A stretch of 64,000 nucleotides of DNA from Lytechinus pictus. Its lineage: Eukaryota. Shown here one piece after another: positions 1,765-57,200 of the stretch; within the stretch, counting starts at the first letter, position 1; each line of letters begins with the position of its first letter. The stretch is from positions 2,110,001 to 2,174,000 of the forward strand of contig NC_087251.1 in NCBI RefSeq assembly GCF_037042905.1, written 5' to 3'. Both the position numbers and the translations under genes were made by a program. Below the pieces are notes generated by a model. It was not told the origin of the DNA. It worked only from the letters and a program-made list of their open reading frames with translations, and made no database searches.

Positions 1765-2250
1765 CTACCCCCTAGTAGTTACCTATGACCCCATCACAGC
1801 TAAAATCACTCGAATCATCCACAAACACAACCCTACATTATCAGAAAACCAGCTACTTCACGCCACCTTCCAGGACCCCCCCCCCCCCCCCCATGGTCGC
1901 CTTTAGGAGGGCCCGCACTTTACGTGACCTCCTCACAAAAGCGGCTGACCCCACAAAACTCAGCAGACACCAAGACAACGACAACAATAACAACATCAAC
2001 GGCTTCCGCAACTGCCAATCAAAAAGATGCATGTTACACAATTATACAACAGATAATCAAACATACACCATCACGATCACCGGCCAGACATACCCTACCA
2101 ACTCACAACTCAATTGCAAATCTCAATGGATCATATACCTCATCACATGCAAGAAATGTCATAAACAATACGTTGGTAAAACAGAAAACACACTCTACAA
2201 CAGATTCAGTAACACCAGATCAGAAATCCGCAATTACAACTCCACCACTA
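1765..2250 (+). mobile_element. Penelope-like retroelement fragment (RT-endonuclease linker and GIY-YIG endonuclease N-terminus)
   Basis: ORF 1785-2309 contains VAFRRARTLRDLL, C..KRC, ITGQTY and NCKSQWIIYLITCKKCHKQYVGKT, the IY...YVG signature of Penelope GIY-YIG domains; truncated at both ends. Confidence 0.85.
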
Positions 2251-4178
2251 AAATTTCGAGATTTAGACCTACTGAACGAGACACTCTATTCATGTTTTGT
2301 AAATCATGAAAAGGATAAGTAATTGGGGATCTTCTTTACATTGATAATGCGAGCGCAAAGCGCGAGCAGAAATTTTTTTATACGTTTTGAACTGATCTAA
2401 AATGACTGCTTGCACTTAGCCATGAAGACGTTACATATTTCAGCAATCAAATAATGCGAGCGCAAAGCGCGGGCTGAAAATTTTTGACATTTCTACATAA
2501 AGAATGGAAAATTTTAATCAATTTTTGTAATCGTGAACAAGATAGCTTTATAACTAAACAATTAATGCGAGCGCGAGGCGCGAGCGGAAAACATCGAGAT
2601 TTAGACCTAAAAACGGGACATTCTATTCATGTTTTGTAAATCATGAAAAGGCTGAGTAATTGGGGGTCTTCCTTCCATTAATAATGCGAGCAGAAATTTG
2701 TTATACGTTTTGAACTGATCGAAAAGGACTGCTTGCACTTAGCCATAAAGACGTTACATATTTCAACAATCAAATAATGTGATCGCAAAGCGCGAGCTGA
2801 AATTTTTTGACATTTCTACATAAAGAATGGAAATTTTTAATCAATTTTTGTAATCGTGAACAAGATAGCTATATAACTAAACAATTAATGCGAGCGCGAA
2901 GCGCGAGCGGAAAAAATCTAGATTTAGACCTAAAAACGGGACACTCAATGCATGTTTTTTTGTAAATCATGAAAAGAATGAGTAATAGGGGATCTTCCTA
3001 CATTAAAAATGCGACCACAAAGCGCGAGCAGAAAATTTTTGATATTGTGATCTGAAACTGGAAAACGATTTACATGGAGAACAAGTCGAGTATCTGAATT
3101 CATATTTAGACCTAGAATCTTGGCATTCTGAATACATCTTTAATCATGAAAATCAAAGCGAGTGCGAAGCGCGTGCTTAAACTATTTGATATTCCGATCT
3201 GAAAAAAGTCAATTTCAGCTCTATATTTCAAGCACTTTGTAGGAAAATAGTGAGGTAAAGAGTTAGTATTTTTCATTATAATTACTTTGAGTTTTGACAT
3301 AGGACCGGGACATCCTTAGGACATGTCATCATATGAAAATGATGCTGTCTTCTTATTCCTCTTAATTGCTAGGCGCGAGATGAAACAAAACGGAGAATTC
3401 AATATCTTATTCATTAATGCCTAATGAGGGCGCGAAATCTGATGACATTATGGGCTGAAAACTGGAAATTTCAAGCACTTTTGTAATTATAAATAGGATG
3501 CATCAGTTAATATATTTTTAACCATTAATGCGAGCGCAAATTGCGAGCCTAAATTTTTTATACACTGTCATGAAAAGGGGATTTTAAGTAGTTTGTTGTA
3601 TAATCAATATTGAGACATACATAACTCGCCAATCAAAATGCGAGCGTGCAGCGCTAGCTGATACGTTTTGACAATCAGACCTGAAAAGGGATATTTTGAA
3701 AACTTTATGGAATACACGAAAATAATAGGTACGTGATAAATTAAAATTTGCGAGCGCGCAGCGCGAGCAGAAAATGTTAATATTCAGATCATAAAACTGA
3801 CATTTTTACAGAGCACTTTTTAAAAATCAATTTGTAAATCACACAAAATCATGAAAGTTCGATTTCCGATATGAAATATGTTTTGTATATTGACTTCGAA
3901 ACTTGATATTTAAACTCCATATTGAACAAGATATGAAAATCACCCAACAGGCAATGCGAAGCGCGAGCGAAAATTTTATATAGTGACATGAAAGATTCTT
4001 TATATTTTCCAGGTCTTCCCCTCATCTTATTTTATTCACTCGTCTTCCCCCTTTTCCTTTTCTCCTCTCTTTTCCCTCCCTTTTTCTTTCTTTTTTCTTC
4101 CTTTTTTTCTTTCTTTCCTTTTTTCCCTTTTTATTGCTCTGCCAATAGCGAGGGGGGGGGGGCTGGATCCGCCTATGC
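2251..4178. repeat. Degenerate tandem array built on a GCGAGCGCGAAGCGCGAGC hairpin motif (about 330-bp higher-order unit at 2255-2950), ending in a G-run/GGATCCGCC terminus
   Basis: More than 15 recurrences of the gcgagcgc.a.gcgcgagc motif; repeated gatttagacct and ttttgtaaatcatgaaaag anchors. Confidence 0.7.
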
Positions 4179-42200: not shown

Positions 42201-45200
42201 ACTTGGTCCAAATCCAAGCAGAACCCTTCTCTGCTGCCTCAGAAGCAGCCCTACAAGCATGCTTATTCTCTCTATTTGAGATACCCAACTCCCGAAACCA
42301 CCTAGGCAATGATTTTGCTATGAACCCACGACAGCCAACCTCAAAGGGGAAGCAAAATACCTTCCAGCCTGTACACTCTGCCACATTTTTAGAATATCCT
42401 CCCAAGGGACGGTCAACTCTCCTAGGACTACTTCCTTAGCAGAGTCAGTTCACAAAACAATATTGGGGCAAGAGATTTGTAAGCATCACATGCTGTGGGA
42501 AACTCCCTTTTCCATCCAGGTTGATTCTAACTTTTCTTTCATGAGCTGGAGACAAAATACTGGGCCTCATAGACTTTGCCTTTGATCTATGCTTGGCCCC
42601 CTTCTTCACAAAATCAATATGGAGCATGCCCCCATTAGCAACACCCTTCCCAGAATTATGAGACGTCACCCTCTTTGCAACCTTCAAAACTTGATCAAGT
42701 ATACACCCCACAACACAGGCTAACCTAGCATGCACTAAGTATATGCTGGAGCTGGAGGGTACTTGTCCCTCCACAAGCACTACACTTGTCAGGCTTGTTA
42801 TACTACTTGCTGAGGTTAAGGCGTAGGCAAGAGATTGTAGGTCGAGCGAACAACGAAGGAGATTCGAAGTGGCTCCATCTGTCATAGCACAGACCATGTC
42901 AACCTTCTGGCTTTCGCCCCCTTTCACTTCGTCCAAGAACCCTGCTGGGCCTGGCCAACTGCTGTGCCCCATCTCTTCTCATCTTCTCTTATCTCCTGCA
43001 TGACAAGGAGAATGATTTGTCATGATGTGAGTTACATATTTTCTGAATCATGACAACTCTTCTGAATATAGAATATAGAGTTGAATTATTTTTATAATTT
43101 ATTTGTTGGCTGTTTGTTTCAGGTATTCCGAAGTGGTGAAGGAATGGGTATTCGTATTGACAGTGCCCTAGCTTTTGCTGGTGCTATAGTATCCCCTCAC
43201 TACGATTCGTTACTGGTGAAACTCATCTCTCGATCCAGAGACCATCAGAGTTCAATCAGAAAGATGCTCAGAGCCTTGGCTGAGTTCAGGATAAGAGGTG
43301 TTAAGGTATGAAACAATTCAACATTCAGTAAACCTGTCTATAGAGGCCATTCTAGGAAGACAAAACGATGTTGTAGATTTTTTACCAGGTAGTTTTGGAC
43401 AGGTTTTTCAAGTACATATTCCAGTGAAAAAACGTATTTCATAGAGATAATATGACCTTTATTGAAAGGTTTTCGTAAAAGAGAGGTTCATGTGTTTTAA
43501 CTTTAGCAGAGCTGACTGACAATTATTTGAGGGTTTGATATTGAAAATATGTATCTAGCTACTTTGGAAATGTTCAGTAATTCACATTCCGAAGATAGAA
43601 ATTGCTCAGCATAACGCAAAGGCATGCTAAGTGACTCCTACTTAAAATTAAAAATTCAAATTGCGAAAGTGATTTTTTTTTCCCATGTGTTTACATAATT
43701 TTTTTTTCTTGTCCTCATGTTTTTTTTTCTTGTGAAGAAGTAGTTTATTAAAGGAAATTAATTGAACATGCATAATTATTGTATCTGAATTATATTACCT
43801 TGTATTAATTTTGTATGGAAATGAACAAAGAATTGAATTGGGTGTTATAAGTGACACTGTGTTATACAATTAATATATTAATACATTCTTTCTTTACAGA
43901 CAAACATACCATTCTTAGAGAACGTGTTACGCCATGAGCAGTTTGTATCAGGTCAGGTGAATACATCATTTATTGATGAGAATCCTCATCTCACAAGAGA
44001 ATTCAAACCAAGTCAAAATAGAGCACAGAAACTTCTCTACTACTTCAGCAACCTGTTGGTTAATGGTCCTGCCACGCCCCTTGCTACCGCTCTTAGACCA
44101 CCTAATGTTACCCCACCCATTCCAGAGGTACCATTTGGTGAGTATCTTTATAAATCTTATCAATTCAATCTTGTAAATATAAGGGAATAGCAAATGTCAT
44201 TGAAATCAATGCAGTAAGGAATAAGGATTAGAAAACGTTTACCGTTAACAGGATTCTAATAACTGCCTCTAGATTAGAGCAGTCATTGATATCTCATTAC
44301 ATCAATAACAAATGTAATCTTTTCTCCCCTCCCCCTTGCCCCCTTTTTAACTACAAGAGCAAAATTTACAACATGTATATGTTTTACAAAAGCATCTAGG
44401 AAAAAAATACCCTGCATAGTTTTTACATCATTTCATAAAAATATCAATATATGTGCCAGTGCTTCTTATTATTGAATGAAAGGGAATGAGTATTATCATT
44501 TTATAGTCCATCTTGTACATTGATCCCAAGTAATCATATTTTAATGTTTCCCACAAGTAAATGTCAAAGGAAAATTATTTTACTTGTTGGTTCAAAATAG
44601 TTCAAAAATTGATATATTACTAAACACTGCTGCGTCCATTCTCACTTCACCAAAATGTAGATTTGAGATTGACATTTCCTTCAATCATAAATGCCTTCAT
44701 ACTATGATTCACCCAGCAATTGACATACATGTATGTGTAATGTCTTCTCAACTCCTTGCCTGATGGAGTGGCACTCTACCTAGCTCAGTAAAGTAGAGCA
44801 TAAATAATCCTAACATGAAATACATTCTTCATTTATATACTTCTAAAATATTCATTCTGTCTTTAAAAAAAATAAAGGATAAGTACAACCTTAATCGTAG
44901 GATTCAAGAATATAAGTGATTTTAAGCTATATTCAAATTAATGTTAAAATTGCTTGCTCTGGGCTTATTATAGGAGAAGTGAGTGGAAGCTATCATGTAA
45001 ATGGTGAGTTAAACCTGTGAAAACTCAAGCATTTGCATCCCAATAAATGCTGGTTGGGATGACATTCTTGTACCAATTCTTTGGGTAGTCTGCAGAAATA
45101 GACCTTAGTGATGCAAGCATGATCTTTCTTCTTTTCCTAAATTCTAATCAGGTCAAGTTTCAAACTAATCTTAGTATTAATCTATGACTTGTAGTTAACT

Positions 45201-48200
45201 GTAATATTCTTTATGTCATCAATATATTAATTAATCAATACACGTATTTAAAGATTCTATATAATATTCTGGATGGTGTAGCTTTAAATTGTGCCAATTA
45301 ATGTTTTCAAGGCTGTTGGTAAAGATATATTCTGAATTTGTTTAGTTATGATTAATGAATATCTGTTGCCGTTAGATGATTCTTCTCAGCTTCTCTATGT
45401 ATTGACAAATGAAGTATTCAGATTTTGTAAAGAGAGGAGAGAAAATATTTATATCATGTATGTGCTGTGACTTGTAAAAACCCAACATGGTGAGATGCGG
45501 TGATTGCTCTGGTGCTTGGTTTAATTATCATCTAAATTCTTCTGCCTTTTGAATGATGAATGATCAATGATGGGACGCAAGACTATGTTCACATTTGGTG
45601 AAAGGTTTCTTTTATATTGCTTCTTCTGCCTTGTGAAAGATTAGCCATCAGTTGTGGGATTAAAGCCTGTGTTCAGATTGGTGATGTTGCTCTTTCTGTC
45701 TACTCATATTTCTTCTCTTCTTTCCTTTCTCTTCCTTTCTTTTTTATTGTTACAGAGTGAATGGGATGCTGAATTTGGATGCATTCTACAAGTGCAAAGT
45801 TTCAATATTAATAATAATCTTAAGTAAATCCTTATCATTCTTACAGTCTTCTTATCAGCATGAATTATAGGTTGTCAGGCTGAGATTACACCTTTTTATC
45901 TGCCCTACCACCCTCAGTATCACAGTTTGGTACACATACTCTTGGGTTGAACTGAGAAATAGTTTCCTTTGCTTGGTCTTCTTTACTAATGATTGGTTGT
46001 TTCAAACCACATTGCTGAATGATTCTTTGCGTTCCTTTGGTTTTATCTATTGCATTTCCTTCATGTTTGAAAATTCTGCCGATAGGGACATGACCCATCA
46101 GGTAGTATCAAGATCAGTGTTGGTGTTAACAGGATCTTTTACATCAGCACAGCATAAATATGATTAGTATGATTTAAACTATTATTTTAAAACTCAGATT
46201 AGGTGTTAAAGTGTTAGAGAAGGCAGTGTACAGAGTGCTTCCAACACCAAAAACATCACCAACCATGAAACCCCCATTGTATTGTTGAGGTTGTTTTCAA
46301 TATGCAAGAAAATGTCTTGTTTTAGATTATCTTCAATGTCCTTCCGTCAATCTTCTAACTTGTAAAGATCATCAGAAATGGCTTACCCTGCTTGTTGATT
46401 TTTGGCTCATCTCTTTCTGAATAATTCATCTATAGCAGAAGAAAGTTTTTGCAGTTGTGAACGAAAATCATTTATCAATCAGCCATTGGTGTGTGATATT
46501 AATTATAGTTCCTTTTTCACAAATGCTAACTTTTCAACAATTCTATGTCACTGTTTCAAATTTGAATGTATTTTATCATCATTATATCTACATGTACTTA
46601 ATGATTACTTTTAAAATCAGAGATACTGTTTTTCCAGAATTACTCCTTATTTTCCATTTCATATATTGCAAAATCTATTAAGGGACTGTGCATGACAATT
46701 CCTGAAAGATTATGTTTTCAACTTTTCTTGGATCCTTTTTCGATCACAAAAATTGTTGCTATACATGTAAAATGGTAGCCATACACATTTATTTTTATTA
46801 CCTACATGTACCTATTGTATATAGATATACAGCTCAATATCATAGAGTACCATATTATGTAAGGTATGATATGTTATCAGAAGGGAGTTATTCACATTAA
46901 TTATTTGTATTTTTGTTCTTTAAAACTTCCTTTTATACATATATATGGGACACTTTTAGATCCACAATTGATGTAATTGAAATGATAGTAATTATCATTA
47001 GACATAATTATTATGACTGGTACAATATTTATCCTGTAAATCTAATGTGTGTTACTAAATACATATATATTTGGAACTAATCCCTTTCCTTTTCCATTGG
47101 AGATACCAATTCTTCTGATTTCATTAATCATGGTTCAGACATCAAGTTAATAATATTAAATTCAATACTGTTTGTAAATATAAAGAATTTATATGTGGGA
47201 ACATGTACATCCATGATTTTTATCATTTTGTTCTAATATGTTCATGTTCACCTATTTATCAGAATACTAGGTTTTGACCAGTTAGACACCATCAGAAAGC
47301 AGGAAGAGAAATTTCTGACATGACTTTCATAGTCCTTCCTTGCCAGTCTCATATTGCACAAGGTCCTCGAGTTGTAAGGAATTACCTAGAAAATTGTTTT
47401 AAGAAGTATTGTACTTGGCATCTGCCTGTCAACATATGAAGAGCTCACTTGCAAAGTCCATTTTTCATCAAATTTGATTTTTATGTCTTAATGTATAGAT
47501 TTTTAGTATAAATAATTTATTGGTTGGATTGCTTAACTAAGCTAGTCGTACAGACTGTTTCACCCTAAGGCTCATCAGCGACTGATGAGCCTTAGGGTGA
47601 AACAGTCTGTACGTCTAGCTTAGTTAAGCAATCCAACCAATAAATTATTTATACTCAGCCCCTACACAGTCGAGCACTATTAGATATTGCAGTATATCAC
47701 TATATACTTACCTACCTAGATTTTTAGTAGCTCTATAAGATGATACCAAAGAAAAGTTGAAATTCCTATTAAAAAGTGAAATAAAATGGCAAAGAAAAAT
47801 CACTTTTTTTTCAAAAGGGGTTAGGTCCATTTCAGTTTAGTTGCAAAAGGGGTTAGGTCCACACAGAATTTTTTTGGAAAAGAATATCTTTAAAGATATT
47901 AAGACAGGTAGATTTCTCTTTTACCCAATTTTATGATCTCATGGTAGGGTATCATAAAAATTAAGTTTCGCATAAGAATATCGCAATATGGGAGAATTAA
48001 AAAAATTGTTTTCTTGGAGTGGACCTAGCCCCTTTTGCAACTAAACTCTTCTGAAGAACTCATTTGTCAAAAGGGGTTAGGTCCATTTTTTAATACATTT
48101 TATTGTTTTCTGTCTCTAAACCTCAAAATTTTTAGTCACTCTGATGATACCAAAGACAATTTGAAATTCAAATAAAAATGTGAATGAAAGTGGCAAAGAA

Positions 48201-51200
48201 AAATCACTTTTTTAATCAAAAGAGATTGGATTCATTTCAGTTTACTTGCAAAAGGGGTTAGGTCCACAATAATAATTTTTTTAAATATATAGAAAAAAAT
48301 TGAAGACAGGTAGATTTCTTTTATACCCAATTTTATGTTCACATGATAGGGTAGTACGTCATGACAATTCAGTTTCTCATAAGAATATTGCAATAAGTGA
48401 GAATTAAAAAACATGTTTTTTCTCGGAAAGGTCCAAAGTGGACCTAACCCCTTTTGCAACTAAACTCTTCATATAATAAAAAGTTAAAATTCTATCTGAT
48501 TGCATTCAGATGGAGTGTGTCATTTCTTTGTTAAATATCATGATGAATTAAAGAAAATAGCATACTCTAAAAGAGCAATGTTATGTTTCTAAATCATGTT
48601 TGGGGTCTTGTTTGTTTTTGGTGCTATTATTGGTATTTTTGCAGTTTGAATACCTTGTCAGGGTCGTGTCAACATTTCTGTGAAAGTTACCATTCACTGA
48701 ACCGCCATATTTTCTTTATTTTTGTTGTTTATTCATTGGATATATTTTTGTAACCACTTAATTCTTTAACTCATATTATTCAATGAATTTAAAGTTGTTG
48801 TAGTACATCACCTAATTTCAACAATAATCAGAGAAGGGTATTAAGGTACTGGGAGTGTTAAACTAATCTTGCTTTTATTATTTGATCCCAACAGACAAGG
48901 CAGTACCTGTGGGAAAGAGAGATATCTTACTTCGGGAAGGACCTGAAGCATTTGCTAAGGCTGTGAGGAACAATCCTGGTCTAATGTTAACAGATACCAC
49001 CTTTAGAGATGCACATCAATCCTTACTAGCAACACGTGTGAGAACCTATGATCTTAAGAACATCTCACCCTTCGTAGCACACAACTTTCACAACTTGTTC
49101 AGTGTAGAAAACTGGGGAGGTAATTTTGTTTCCGTTTATTTTTTCATTTATCAAGCACATTTTATTTCGTCCTGGAACTTCTTATTGTCTTCAGAGATTT
49201 AGTGAAATATGTGCTATTTAACTTAGAAAAGGGTTTTGGTTTTTGTACTCTAGTTAGTATTTGTCAGATTGTAGTCCGATGTTCAATTGTTGGCGATATC
49301 ATACATAAGCATTTTAGATTCATTTTCAAAATTAGCACAGGAGCACAATTCTTTAATTACCACATGCATCTAATATGCATTGCCTTTTCCACATTTTTAA
49401 CTCTAAATTTCAACATATTTTCAGTGAAGGATCTTTATACATGGTGCTAACTTTATGCAGCTAACCTAGTTTCAAGTAAATAAGACATCTTAATATGTCC
49501 ATGCTTCATTGATAGGTGCTACATTTGATGTTGCTATGCGCTTTCTTCATGAGTGTCCTTGGGAGAGGTTAGAGACGTTACGAGAACTGATCCCAAACAT
49601 CCCATTCCAGATGCTTCTCAGGGGAGCCAATGCTGTAGGATATACTTCATATCCTGATAATGTTGTGTACAAGTAAGTTTACCTTTATATTATACCCCTT
49701 GACCTTGAAGCATATTCATATGATATTGACTGGCCTTGAGGGAAACATGTATTGCCCACAAAAGAATCATATTGGCCCAAGTCTTTAGATGAGGGCAATA
49801 TGGTTCTTCTTTGAAGGGCAATATTTTGATGTTCCCCGAAAGAAGAGCCAGTCAATAATTTTATTATCATCCAAATCAAACATCTAGAGCAAAAATCATG
49901 AAAATTGAGATATTTTTTTCAAGAAGATGGTTCTACTGTGTCATGTTTATATCAGGGACCAGGCTCTGCACTTTACCATTATGATGTACTTGTGGACGCA
50001 TCCAGCCCCCGGATCTAGTGTTGTCTTTATTGTGACATATATTGTTGCTGCGCGAATCATAATGTGGCGTATCTCTTTCTACGCATCCTCAGATGCCCGA
50101 ATGTGAGACCAGGGAAAATAGAAAGGTATATTTTGCGTCGTCTCTGTATGCAAAGTCAATACGCGCATTGAGACCGAGGAAAATACAAACAATATACCTA
50201 TACCTTCCCAACAATCAGAAAATCTAGGGCAATACGGTTTTGTAAATCACCAGCTCAGTTGTCTGATAATGGTAGTAACATATAATATGATCATATGATG
50301 CCTAAGATGAAAATAAAATCCATTGATTAATGAGAGATCATTTTCTGTCTAGAAATGCTCAAAATAATTCAATTTTGTCATGAAAACTTTATGATTTGCT
50401 CCATGTCAATACTGTACATCCTTTCATTTTCCATGTTGTGTTGTCAGGGGATCTTTAATAGTTCACTTACATTTCAACTCAATCAAAGAATAAGGACACA
50501 TGGAAAAATTGTGAACTGCATTTTAAAGTATGTACATTTATTGAAGATTAAATAACTTTATAACAAAATACAGAACAAGTCATATGGCTAAATTAACTTA
50601 TGCAGTCTGATGGTCTATTGACATTATTAAACACTGCAGATAGTCTTAAACCATCTTGATCTCTGCTCTCAAATTTCTATTCTCAAATCTCCAATCTGGT
50701 ATATGCTACAATTTTACTAGATTTGTGGAGTGAACCCTTTTATATTCTTTTAAGAGAAAACAGATTGTGCTGCTGTAAAGTGCAGTTTCAGAATAGAAAA
50801 TAAAGGTCAATTGTAGCATGCATTTTACTAGGTTCGCCAAATCTATAACTGGGAGTGATAACATCATAATGAGCACTTCTTTTCAAATCACTTTGGCTCA
50901 ATTCACATTTAAATACTTAATTTCATGTGATTATTTCACATACCACCAGCTTTCATAACGCTTTTAAAAAAACTTGTCCAACTTATCCAAATCTTGCTAA
51001 GAATTCGCTAAAAATTCTATTTACATACTTTTTTTCCTCGAAAATGCCTGTCAATTTTCCAAGTTTTTATGGAATTATTTTCATTTGGTAATAATTAACA
51101 ATCCCTTCTTTCTTGACTGAAAGATCAATTTCTTGAAATTTCAGTTGCATCAATATACACATATTGGACAGGGTGATAGTCTGGCAAAGTTAATTGAAAA

Positions 51201-54200
51201 TAATAATCACCTGTTGGCTTTGTCTTTTTTTAAGCATGTGACTTATGTACATCTTGATCTACTGCAATTTCAATAAACCTATTTCAAAGACTCAAGAAAG
51301 AAGAGAGTATTCCTCATTTTCCTGGTTGATAAAAATACTATCAACGAAATATGGCCAATAGATGTGCGTTTTTTATGGAAAGATGTGAAATGTTAATTTT
51401 CAGCAAATATTGTGGAACTACTTTTTTTTTTTATTAGACCCTAAAAAAATACTTCAATTTTCTGGCAATTCTAAATTCACAATTCCCTTTTGTAAGAATA
51501 ATTTTTTTTTTAATCTTAAGAATTATTTGCTTTGTGAATTCATATGTAAGTGCTGATCCACTATATCAAGCTTGGAGTATATACATTGGATGTGCTTGTC
51601 CTAGTGTGTACAAAATACAATATGAAAAACATAAAATTGTTTAAACTTGACTACAAGATAATGGTTTCTCTTTCCATTGCCACTCTCAAATTTGTAAAGA
51701 AAGTTTGCATTCTGCCTCGTGCAACCAGGTACCTTTGAGACACAAAGAATTAAGAATTCAACATGTTAATTGAGATCATATATGATATTACTATCATTCA
51801 GAGAGGGATAGCATTGTTGATTGCCTTATTTGCCCTCATGCTCTTCTCAAACTGAGCCCAGAATAGTTCCTGACCATCCTCATCATCAGTCCACAACATG
51901 TAAGGTTTATTCTTACTCAAGAATAACCTGACAAGGTATGGCATGTTCTCATCCTCGATGTCCTCTACAAAGATCAGGATGATCTTGTCAAGTCCTGTAT
52001 CATTGATATGCTCTAGGGCCATGTGGAGCTTTGTCATAGTCCAGGCATCGTTGATTGACTCATTGCTTAGCAACAAGACTGTCTTGAAGCTATTGTCAAG
52101 AGCATCAAAGATTGCATTAATGTAGTACATACCTAGGTGGAGACCCTCATCTCCATATATGATGTTCTGTAGGTGTGGCATCCTCTCTTCTAGCCCAGGT
52201 TTCATAACCTGATCAACCCATTCCTGCTCAGATTCCTGGAACATGATGTTCAGATGGTGATAATAGTTGACGTCATTAAATTCTTCTGCCATTTCATTGT
52301 ACCCCACAATGGCGAGTTTGAGGAGGAAGAATTTATGATTTAACCACCATCGTTTAGTGTAGGCAAGAACAACAATCATACCAACCAGAACACCTGAGAA
52401 AGAGAGGACCACAATGGGAACAATATTGATACCACAGTGGTCATCTGGATGAAATGACAAGATTGGCTGATCAGAAAGACCCTTTAATGATGTCCCAGAG
52501 CACTTTGTTTGATTTGCGTGTTTCAACTCGATATTGTTGGATTCCAGCCACCTCCTAAACCATTGCAAAGAGCAAGAACATGTAATGGGATTCCTAGAAA
52601 GATCCAGATTGAAAGAAGTATTCATTGGAAATACAGTTCCTGGTTTGATGTTGGTGATTTGATTTCCAGCTAGATGGAGATCATGTAGTCTGGGTTTCTG
52701 GGCAAAAGTATTTGTATCCAGGTCATGGAGGGTGTTATCAGGGATACTAATCACAGTTAGATGATAAAGACCATTGAACATGTCTTCAGGAATCTTCTGT
52801 AGTTGGTTACCCCCAAGGAATAATAATTGGAGGGAGGAGAGAGGTTCGAATATTCCAGAGCTCAACACAATTATTTTGGAGTTGGACATATCAAGATAGT
52901 GAAGTTTAGATAGGTTCTGGAAAACTCTGCTTTCTATGTTCCAAAGATGATTGTTCTGAAGCCTCAGTAATCGTAAAGAGCAAAGCCCAGCAAATAACGA
53001 CTGATTTTTTTTTTTATCATATAAGTCAATGTCTCTTACTTGTGCCACCTCCATCCGCAGTTCCTGCAGTATTGTCAAGTTTCTGTATTGCTCAATTGAA
53101 TTTTCTGATACTTTGATAGGAGTATTTGACAAATCTAACACAAGCAATGAATTCAGGTTTGTGAAAGTTCCTTCTAAAAACGTTGACTTTTCATATTTGA
53201 GATATAGTCTTTCTAACTTAACAAGATCTTTAAATGCAGTAGTGGTATACACTGTGATCTGATTGTGAGATAAGTTTATTTCCTTCAGATTTATAAGGCC
53301 AATGAATATTTATTTGCCAATGATAGTGATAACATTAGAGGATATATCAAGTGAATGGAGAGTTCCAAGATTCCATGGTTGTCTTTTACTATTAAGATCT
53401 TTAATTGAGTTATGCATCAGATATACCTCCTGGATTGATGGCATGTCATTGAAGGAGTCTGGAAAGATGGCCTGTAAATGATTATTTGAAATGTTTAATT
53501 TTTTCAAACTGGGCATGCAAGCAAAGGTTTTTTGTGGCAAAGATGCTATTCTATTAACTGATATGTCAAGTTCCAGTAGTGATTGCAGCTGACAGAAAGA
53601 CTCTCTTGTTATGCGTGAGATTCTGTTTCTACCCAAGTGAAGAACTTTAAGCTTGGAAAATCCCCAAAATGAAGATGGAGGAACATTGGTTATAAAGTTT
53701 AATGACATGTCAAGATTTAAGATTGATGGATAATGTTCATATTTTTTATCATCAGGTGGTAGAAGCTGCCTGATCTTACCAGCTCTTACTGAAAGTTTGT
53801 CAATAAAGTCCATACCTGAAAATGGTTGAATATCAAAGGAGTTGAAGAAATTTGATTCAATTCTCATAGTTAGCACCGAGTTCAAATGACAAAAGACTCT
53901 CGCTGGTAACCTCTTTATCTTATTGTTACTCAGGAACAAGTATGATAAAGTCTTGTTTTGTAAGGGTAGAAAGTCCTTCTGCTGAAGTTCAACCACCTCA
54001 TTATTGGAAACATCAATTATAGACAGGGTAGACCATTCGGAGCAGGTATTAAAGTTGAGCCTTTGTATTCTGTTATGTTGTATTTGTATCTCTCTAAGTT
54101 TCGGTAGAACTGCAAGTGCATCACATGGAACATTGATGAGTTTATTATTATTCAGACGCACTTCTGTCAGATGAGTATTTTTTACAAAGAGAAGGGGAGA

Positions 54201-57200
54201 CAAGGTCACTAAGTTTCCATAGGACAATATGAGATTCCGTAGCTCTGTCAGTGGCCATAGTGCCTTACTCTCAATCAAGTACAGTGGATTCTTTTTCACA
54301 TTGAGAGTAACAAGATGAGGCACATGCTGGAAGGAATCATTCCAGAAAACTGTCAGATTATTAAAGGACAAGTCAAGAGCAGACACTTCTGTTGTCAAAT
54401 CCTTAGGAACATCACTTAGTCCTAGATGAGCACAGTTGGCAACAAGACCTTGACTTGAGTTCCTGAAACGGCATCCTGCAGAGTTGCTGTAAGATGTCAA
54501 ATCTGATGCTGCAGACTCTGATTGAGATAAATGTAAATGCATCAGATCTTGTCCACTGGTCATCAGTATAAGATGGAGGCAAATTACAATGTTTAGCATG
54601 CTGATCGCCATAGTCCAAGGCTCAGATATCACATCAATGATTGCTAAAATCCTATGATGAATTCAAAAAGATAGAAAGGGTTTGGAACCAGTCGGTATCT
54701 TCAGAATGTTTTCAGTTATGTAGAACCTCTGTACTAATCTTAGTCTGAGTATGACTCTGTTACAATCGATAGGATACACCTAGACAGTAGAATTAAGACT
54801 GAGCAGAGATTCAGAGCCATCTGCTCAGCAGTTTGCAAGAATATGACAGTTGTATTCCATCAGCATGTTATCCTGATCACTGATTTAAATATAAATTTAG
54901 ATTTCCATTTATAATTTTGTCATCTTGTAACTCTGCAGACTGAATGAATAATAATGCTCAGGTCTTTGTCAGGATCTTAAAGTAGACTTTATTTCTTCAT
55001 TCGCAAAGAAGGAAACTGATAACGCCTCAAAACTCATTAGCATGTGATGTGGAGTGCCTCTTATATGAATAACCCACTGATTAATGAAATCATTTATTGC
55101 AATTAAAGGCTCAGTATGGGGTATCACCCAGCTCCAGGTTTCAAGTTTTAATACCTCATCATTTATCTTTTATTCACTCTATGTGTTGAGTGCTAAGTTT
55201 CAATATTTAATTCCTTTATTGGTGCTTGTGATTCTGGAGGATGGGGAGAGGGAAGCTACATGTAGAATGTTTGCCTCCACCGTTCATAGGCGATTGCCGG
55301 GGGGGGGGCATTATATTATTGGCTCTTCTCTATCCATCATCCCCATTTTATTTCATCAGGATAATTTCAAAACCATTAAAAAAATGACAACTTTCAAAAT
55401 CAGTCATACTTGCTTAGGAATGAACAGGATATGGTTGTCAGAGTTCATTATACAGTACCTGAAAACTAACTGTTATATCAATTCTAGTATTTGCTCATAA
55501 TTGTATATGAGAGTGACCTTGTATTGGTCAGATATGGGGGTCACAGGATCAAAGATCAGAGGTCTATCAACAAGACAAATTGCTTTTTCTCTAGGTAAAC
55601 AAAGCAATGGTTTGCCAGACCGACTTCAAACTTGGTGCGTACTTTACACAAGCATTTTCTTTCAAAACAAGTTTGATGAATACCAAATGGCAGGAGATTA
55701 TTTACACTGATTAGGTAACTTTCTATGAAAAATGTGAATGCCCTTCTTTCAAAGTTTGAAGAGTGATTTTTTATGCCAAATAATAGTGATACAATCAATT
55801 TTCTACATTCTTCCCATTATATGTACTTCATCAATCATGTTATGGTTACAACCCCTTATGCTTATAGAACCTGTAAGTGACATATTTAAGCTGAAAAAGA
55901 ATTGATTCTGTACTGTTATAAAACAAAATTAAGGAGAATAATATTGTTTATATTGACCCAGCTCAGAAAAGAGAATGGATATTTCTGTGTATTTGACCAT
56001 TTTAACTACCTAATAGATGAAATGATTAATACTGATTTGGTTTTATTCTGTTATGTTTTCCTATCAGATTCTGCATTCTTGCTGAAAAGCGTGGAATGGA
56101 TACCTTTCTTTCATTTTTTTAACTACCTGATCAGTGAAAGACTTGATACTCACAGGGTTTTTGGTGTTAACTTCTAAAGATTGGTGTTTATAATGAACTG
56201 ATATCTACAGTGTCTTTTACTCATTAAAAACCTGATCCCTGAAAACTCGATACTCAATGGATTTTAATGTCTTTTATCAGGTTCTGTGACCTTACTCATA
56301 AGTGTGGAATGGCTATCTTCTGTGTCTTTGAGTGTCTTAACCCTAATTCTCCCGGGGGGGGGGGGGGGCCATTATGGCCCCCCCCCCTCGACAATTTTTG
56401 CGATATATCTGCTGTGCAAAATTTTTTGACCTCGCCGCTCACTGACTTTTTACTTTCAAGTCTCGCGCAAATTTTGAGACCAAATTTGTGACGCCCGGGT
56501 ACGCGGTTACGACATTACGCAACATTATGTAAGTGCATGTCAGACCCAAAATTGCTCATAAACGTGATTTCATGTACAAATCCAATGCAAATTGTGTATT
56601 TGGCCAAAATTCATAAATGTATCATTATTTCTACTTTTAATAATCAAACTTAATTAATTTTGCCTTGTTTATGATTACAATTGAGTCTGGAACGATTTCC
56701 ATTGAAAAAACAATAAAAAACAAAAAGTGAAAAAACAAAGAAATACATAAGAAATTTAAAAAACAATAAAATACATAAGAAATCGGTCTTGGGACCAGAA
56801 TTTTTTTCATTCACAATTGTTAGGAATGCTATAAAGAATATTTTCACCAAAAAATAGCATTCTATGAGCTTTATTTAGTGAATCAGAGCAAAAAGTATGA
56901 TTTCATGAATAAATTAGCATAATTAATTCATATAAAATAAAAATATATGAATTCAGTGAAATTTACCAATGCAACTGCGTAGATTACGTCATTCTCTACC
57001 ATCATGCAAATTTTCGTTGTGATCGCGCAATCCACGGCTGAGATCTTAAGGGGGGGCCATAATGCCCCCCCCCCCCCCCCCGGGAATGACAAGAATCAGA
57101 ATACCCCGGGAGATTGAGGGTTAACCACCTGATCCATGAGATCAAGATTTTTGTCAGACAAGTTGTCAAATGTTTCCTTGATGTTGATTGAAGCAGTGTT

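Follow-up and report, generated by a model that had tools for sequence, protein, structure and literature searches.

The minimal hammerhead motif in the window (the whole 64 000-nucleotide stretch of Lytechinus pictus DNA that was analysed) is one arm of a head-to-head Penelope-like mini-insertion with a 13-bp target-site duplication, and not a lone remnant. We assign the insertion to the Hydra clade of Penelope-like elements (PLEs) with near certainty. In two sister families the 5′ ends of genomic copies pile up a few nucleotides before the hammerhead core, and this pile-up likely marks the place where the element RNA starts. The complete mechanism that we favor, and regard as probable, is a two-priming head-to-head insertion in which cDNAs run off the 5′ end of the RNA just before the hammerhead and are joined there. 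Neither the hammerhead nor the clade nor the inverted tailed architecture is new.

The motif lies at 47544..47583 on the minus strand. Read directly from 47583 to 47544, the sequence is AGTCG CTGATGA GCCTTAGGGT GAAA CAGTCT GTA CGACT, with core and stems exactly as described in a first-pass annotation of this DNA. It is a type I minimal hammerhead in which the CUGANGA, GAAA and NUH core elements are all present, stem I is intact with five Watson–Crick pairs, stem II consists of G-U, C-G and C-G pairs and stem III is ACAG-U-CUGU. The predicted cut falls between 47549 and 47548, and the annotated cleavage position agrees with this structure. A second cut at AUC/AGUCG was considered and rejected, as stem I is unable to pair there. 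A descriptor combining the core, a 3-bp stem II and a 5-bp Watson–Crick stem I, composed once the motif was known, matched the 64-kb window at this site only and matched none of 60 shuffled 64-kb windows. Rfam did not recognize the motif: no hammerhead model reached the gathering score, and the 13 matches at E ≤ 10 contained no hammerhead and were mostly sub-threshold hairpin or miRNA models.

The palindrome that had been described around the motif spans 151 bp (47505–47655) within an intron of a host gene, with 74-bp arms, one mismatch and the centre CGA. In element coordinates, where 0 is the C of CTGATGA, the short arm (47505..47583, minus strand) covers −5 to +71/+73 and has no tail, and the tailed arm (47582..47718, plus strand) covers 0 to +136, including a 65-nt tail (47654..47718, plus strand) that copy mapping places between two fixed 3′ ends. 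The arm junction at the centre (47579..47581, CGA on the plus strand) differs in each palindromic copy. It is overlapped by a putative initiator motif, TCAGTC (47580..47585, minus strand), whose A (47583) opens stem I in the window copy and whose TC may derive from the opposite arm. A second hammerhead core (47582..47616) lies on the plus strand, which is that of the host pre-mRNA; it lacks the 5′ strand of stem I, so that this stem cannot form, and carries an A→T change at 47614. The two copies of the target-site duplication TAGATTTTTAGTA (47496..47508 and 47717..47729, plus strand) are defined by the direct repeat and by an empty-site joint from 47495 to 47717. Duplications of 9–14 bp flank the copies L039, L067 and L074, and are ill-defined in TA runs. 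The window insertion is recent, as judged from its arms, which differ from another copy at no position (minus arm) and at two positions (plus arm).

The insertion is held by a high-copy host repeat (47456..48474, delimited by sequence and by read and contig joints), which is unclassified and contains 29-bp inverted motifs and a 405-bp internal duplication. The empty-site joint, with 13 shared letters, was found in four and three reads of two RNA runs and in four contigs; these probably derive from the host repeat at other sites, and thus show the empty-site form and not a polymorphism at the window locus. The intron has approximate bounds of 44138..48893 (plus strand), based on exon frames, Pfam biotin carboxylase matches and the strand of exon reads, and belongs to a gene that from its motifs we take to encode pyruvate carboxylase; the splice joint of this intron is absent among the RNA-read joints listed. 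The first mate of the host exon reads is always on the minus strand, so that in the usual stranded library the host mRNA is the plus strand and the intact hammerhead is antisense to it. Three RNA runs sampled at about 6 in 100 had no coverage of the unique intron sequence and showed no pile-ups of read starts or ends. No cut ends of the hammerhead were seen in RNA reads at this low depth, and 22–37 reads per run contained no site where many molecules start, so that a 5′ end of the element RNA was not observed. Elsewhere in the window, an intronless LRR + TIR (Toll-like receptor) frame (51801–54662, minus strand), broken in two near 53310, lies antisense in another intron of the host gene.

On copies and covariation the first-pass annotation held. 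A DNA search of the genome gave 80 matches, spread over about 40 places. A pattern of 24 letters lying downstream of the motif had 73 exact matches (family A, all of which were mapped), and its reversed control had none. The longest family A copy carries a 601-amino-acid frame with reverse transcriptase (RT) and endonuclease (EN) motifs that ends about 200 nt upstream of the motif. A sister family, B (81 matches; 68% nucleotide identity to A), has a 719-amino-acid RT/EN frame ending about 200 nt before the motif, and its tandem copies L054 and L055 have the arrangement pLTR–ORF–pLTR with a unit of 2491 bp. In family A no such partial tandem was found, nor any copy that joins the 5′ end of the frame to a pLTR. 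In longer copies the identical motif is immediately preceded by a frame of RT + GIY-YIG type, which makes it, on sequence grounds, the pLTR hammerhead of a PLE. The earlier suggestion of a Penelope or retrozyme remnant is therefore correct as to Penelope; it is not a retrozyme, with no head-to-tail tandem units at the window locus or in family A copies, and not an old remnant, given the near-identity of its arms to another copy.

Read by eye, the frames of both families contain the RT and GIY-YIG motifs YRDDG and VIY..YIG; Pfam detected neither an RT nor a GIY-YIG domain in the 601- and 719-residue proteins. Protein relatives numbered 3551 at E ≤ 1e-30, and the 120 listed bear no informative names. 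The frames show PADKTNN (DKT), CNCRKTEDC (CxCX5C linker), CNLC (CxxC) and CRH (CxH), units are below 3 kb and copies are flanked by TA runs. Units of this size, (TA)n targets and the same four motifs are given as marks of Hydra-clade EN+ PLEs in the accessible part of Craig et al. (2021; PMC8557442). The N-terminal RWK position reads RWR in family B, and the region is absent or degraded in family A copies. The parent is thus assigned, from motifs read by eye, as a young Hydra-clade PLE. Two further features of family B were noted. At G000:C21 (5.7–6.4 Mb) one inverted insertion repeats about every 95 kb in a large tandem segmental array. RNA reads at L054:1900–2600 show T>C almost only with the first mate on the plus strand and A>G mostly with the first mate on the minus strand, as A-to-I hyper-editing of double-stranded RNA may give.

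The hammerheads were compared in an anchored table. In six families of the L. pictus genome and in a contig from elsewhere the core is conserved, and the two strands of stem I vary together: A has AGTCG/CGACT, B has AGTTG/CAACT, and F, G, H and I have other pairings. Stem III, a palindrome of 4 bp with a single base at its centre, differs in sequence (ACAG/CTGT, ACTC/GAGT, ACCA/TGGT, ACCG/CGGT); four of four pairs form in seven of nine motifs and three of four in the other two. The paired changes in both stems support, at the level of sequence comparison, selection on RNA structure. The G10.1-C11.1 pair, which the accessible part of PMC4209133 describes as highly conserved in minimal hammerheads, is missing here (G-U in A, A/G in B), as it is from most published Hydra-clade hammerheads (PMC8557442 supplementary File S2). 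The base before GAAA is T in 31 of 32 long family A arms and in most of those published hammerheads, so that the stem II G-U pair, which the first-pass annotation had tentatively put down to a deaminated CpG, is a family-wide feature and not decay in the window copy. A metagenome scan gave two loci, one with a hammerhead. Another genome (L202:1560–1620) contains a Hydra-like element with the hammerhead variant GAAG/GCAG-C-CTGT and an 8-bp stem I.

Predicted energies suggest that the ribozyme is weak by itself. The monomer has a hammerhead fold of −4.9 kcal/mol and a best fold of −9.1 kcal/mol; the dimer reaches −21.1 kcal/mol as hammerhead, compared with −27.8 kcal/mol for the best dimer fold. 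Activity would thus probably need both a partner and a chaperone, namely the protein of the element; weak, dimer-dependent activity is also what the accessible part of PMC4209133 leads one to expect of minimal PLE hammerheads. The whole insertion is predicted to form a hairpin of −132 to −140 kcal/mol. With the motif antisense to the host pre-mRNA and both cores expected to be buried in this 74-bp hairpin, the hammerhead is unlikely to act at the window locus and is predicted to be inert there.

The ends of the copies bear on how such insertions arise. In family A, 3′ ends fall most commonly at +71 (33 of 73 arms) and also at +136 (19 of 73). Inverted pairs with both arms matched consist of one short and one tailed arm in 15 of 15 cases in family A and 13 of 15 in family B. 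This matches Poseidon PAc in vitro, where two RT start sites bound the tail and both target strands are extended (PMC11167929). The arms of one pair may be very unequal (in L029 they begin at −6 and −311); the longer arm is tailed in some copies and untailed in others, and some pairs have non-overlapping arms. The genome contains at least 12 palindromes like that of the window, each with its own centre junction, and each was therefore made anew.

The 5′ ends are concentrated at the motif. For family A, BLAST placed 39 of 73 ends in −9..+6, none in −10..−22, 32 further upstream and two downstream, with 1.5–2.0 expected in −9..+6 from the rate elsewhere; the interval was picked post hoc and arms of one insertion are non-independent. 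For family B, 75 of 81 matches were examined and five segmental duplicates dropped, and 28 of the remaining 70 arms begin in −12..+6 (two to three expected). An exact-match walk narrows the peak to −5..−3 (19 of 39 arms in A, 10 of 29 in B), and the peak also appears in both families among single-arm copies without a short partner. Six of the 39 family A arms reach −6..−10, which is explicable by microhomology with the target or partner. Ends at the predicted cut site are rare, with 0 of 73 in family A (within 2 nt of +30) and 2 of 70 in family B (near +31). A 3′ splice site at the AG at −5/−4 in A and B was rejected, there being no shared upstream exon before the stubs.

Position −5 corresponds to the A of TCAGTC in family A and of TTAGTT in family B. 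TCAGTC is a tested initiator in the accessible part of PMC3511282, and PLE start sites lie in the upstream pLTR according to those of PMC6765202 and PMC2377424. All six Hydra families in which a hammerhead was found in this genome have TCAGT or TTAGT, the A lying at −5 to −7; families F, G, H and I have TCAGT with the A at −6 or −7, unpaired in H, and a contig from another genome has TCACT at the equivalent place. Among the 25 published Hydra families (PMC8557442 supplement, by eye), two carry T(C/T)AGT at that position, and CCAGT and TCATT occur once each; TCAGT is thus not clade-wide and may have been inherited within one lineage. It also speaks against an RNA start at this base that ends in other families of this genome are less concentrated. 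Family H (30 of 43 matches examined) is diffuse, with six of 30 BLAST ends in −9..+6, five more at +14..+33 and two at −15 and −20; families G and I, with too few copies, have no starts at the motif (0 of 7 and 0 of 4 respectively); and family E (30 of 55 examined) has 11 ends spread over −31..0. The 5′ ends of family E (L145, L159, L166, L168, L169) also group at −112..−114 (three of 30) and −229 (two of 30), the latter just after a TCAGT; these are perhaps further start sites.

Under the two-priming mechanism, the element RNA would start at the A of TCAGTC (−5). Two cDNAs would be primed at a staggered target cut, one on each strand, reverse transcription beginning at +71 and +136 in the 5′ pLTR of the RNA, and both would run off the RNA 5′ end to give products of 76 and 141 nt. 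A cDNA ending in ...CAGCGACT could fold back by 2–3 nt on its own AG, and the few bases added in this way could anneal to the partner cDNA, so joining the two. The second, tail-primed cDNA is needed because the plus strand of the window reads as an untailed cDNA that folds at CAGCGACT and then enters a tail that it could not have templated. In two single-arm copies of family B, AGTTG is preceded by ATC where TTT would be natural, which is the outcome predicted for a 3-nt fold-back from −5.

A broader form of this proposal, which we advance only tentatively and which may well prove wrong, is that PLEs make retrovirus-style strong-stop cDNAs, RT starting in the 5′ pLTR of a capped sense RNA and running off its first base. 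The initiator would then sit in the first strand of the hammerhead and the stubs would map the start to the base; intron-less products of family C would derive from spliced sense RNA, and long copies would keep their introns through priming in the 3′ pLTR. PLEs are noted for intron retention. An internal control comes from family C (30 of 44 matches examined), another PLE, whose linker is of the CxxC type. Only one of its 30 arms has a 5′ end at the hammerhead. A GT-AG intron ending at −3 is exactly missing in four of the 30, three of which also lack a second intron upstream; the borders are GGAACTATAG/GTAACC...CACAG/TATTAC and ATGCTG/GTAAAT...TATAG/GC. The four arms come from two independent insertions: L179 and L180 (G000:C3, 50.36 Mb) belong to a single event, and L200 and L201 (G000:C11, 7.0 and 7.16 Mb) have the same flanks. 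These two insertions reach about −930 and −936, two events being too few to fix a start site. Such spliced copies would be expected if a spliced sense RNA were copied at its 5′ end; alternatively, it may be the 3′ pLTR copy that was spliced. A GIY-YIG fragment elsewhere in the window (1779–2306, plus strand; Pfam E 1.9e-05), which by eye is close to the family C endonuclease, is 3′-truncated with no adjoining hammerhead.

The 5′ edge might instead be set by the hammerhead fold or by a bound protein, through trimming of the RNA to stem I by a 5′-to-3′ exonuclease or stalling of RT, with the insertion otherwise the same. Family A alone cannot tell a promoter from a structure, because there the start base and the first paired base of stem I are one and the same. 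The scattering of family H ends inside a motif with a longer, GC-rich stem II would suit such an edge, and the Anolis hammerhead needs the protein of its element (PMC11167929), so that a protected complex is plausible. However, stem I of family B could be extended to −8 and the ends stay at −5, 32 of the 73 family A arms read straight through the motif, and family C has a hammerhead and no pile-up. RT would moreover be expected to meet the 3′ strand of stem I first and to melt the stem before it arrives at the 5′ strand. We consider this explanation unlikely.

Still less probable is that the palindrome arose by self-priming of a single strand, either one cDNA or an antisense RNA, and not by two primings. 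The plus strand of the window does read as a cDNA that, having ended at CAGCGACT, served as its own template, and self-priming on an antisense template has been argued for junction palindromes in the accessible part of Arkhipova et al. (2013; PMC3846280). In the window, however, the strand that folds begins at the untailed end and so could not have templated the 65-nt tail that the other arm carries. Nor does self-priming account for pairs in which either class of arm may be the longer or in which the arms do not overlap. The exactly spliced family C copies require a spliced sense RNA as template and thus conflict with the antisense proposal; two primings on sense RNA give a better fit to the copies described here. 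That the palindrome is a non-autonomous unit, retrozyme- or MITE-like, copied whole is very improbable and largely refuted: similar palindromes do recur in the genome, but their centre junctions differ, family A has no head-to-tail tandem monomers and the arms are plain pieces of the 3′ end of the coding element. The least credible reading, that the host uses an intronic ribozyme to cut the pyruvate carboxylase pre-mRNA, has in its favor the location in an intron of an expressed gene, but the intact motif is antisense to the mRNA, the sense copy is without stem I, the predicted hairpin (−132 to −140 kcal/mol) far outweighs the dimeric hammerhead (−21 kcal/mol) and the insertion is near-identical to dispersed copies and hence recent.

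The motif itself is ordinary, hammerheads of such build from the Hydra clade being in print. Like them, it is of type I, lies about 100–200 nt from the 3′ end and has a U before GAAA (PMC8557442); the 25 published families share the build with a 4-bp palindromic stem III, which in five is ACAG/CTGT or a one-base variant (supplementary File S2). Compared with the families in the accessible part of PMC8557442, those described here are new, with a very short stem II and RWR for RWK in family B, and the tail is 65 nt instead of the 30–40 nt usually quoted for Hydra-clade PLEs. The type I fold and palindromic stem III are shared with the minimal metazoan PLE hammerheads of Cervera and de la Pena (2014; PMC4209133), which as far as the accessible part goes are mostly solo motifs from truncated elements, with dual motifs on opposite strands 100–700 bp apart; here the G10.1-C11.1 pair is absent and two opposed motifs overlap at one centre. 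With the inverted-pLTR insertions in the accessible parts of PMC3846280 and of Frangieh et al. (2024; PMC11167929) the copies here share head-to-head arms of which only one is tailed, junctions that are palindromic, target-site duplications near 10 bp, AT-rich targets and a pair of RT start sites that bound the tail. Non-LTR retrozymes (bioRxiv 10.64898/2026.07.22.740005, accessible part) likewise have a type I hammerhead, descend from PLE pLTRs and are non-coding; they are head-to-tail tandem units each with a hammerhead, whereas the window stub is a one-off head-to-head insertion. The accessible part of PMC8557442 does not mention a 5′ pile-up or an initiator overlap, the main text of PMC11167929 does not discuss the 5′ ends of genomic copies, and in the open-access literature we found no account of the pile-up, of strong-stop products, of the initiator overlap or of spliced genomic copies.

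It is the copies that matter. How PLEs build their inverted ends and why they keep introns are standing questions in the accessible parts of PMC8557442 and PMC3846280. The spliced copies of family C argue against an antisense template, and the stubs yield a prediction, to the base, of where the element RNA would start.
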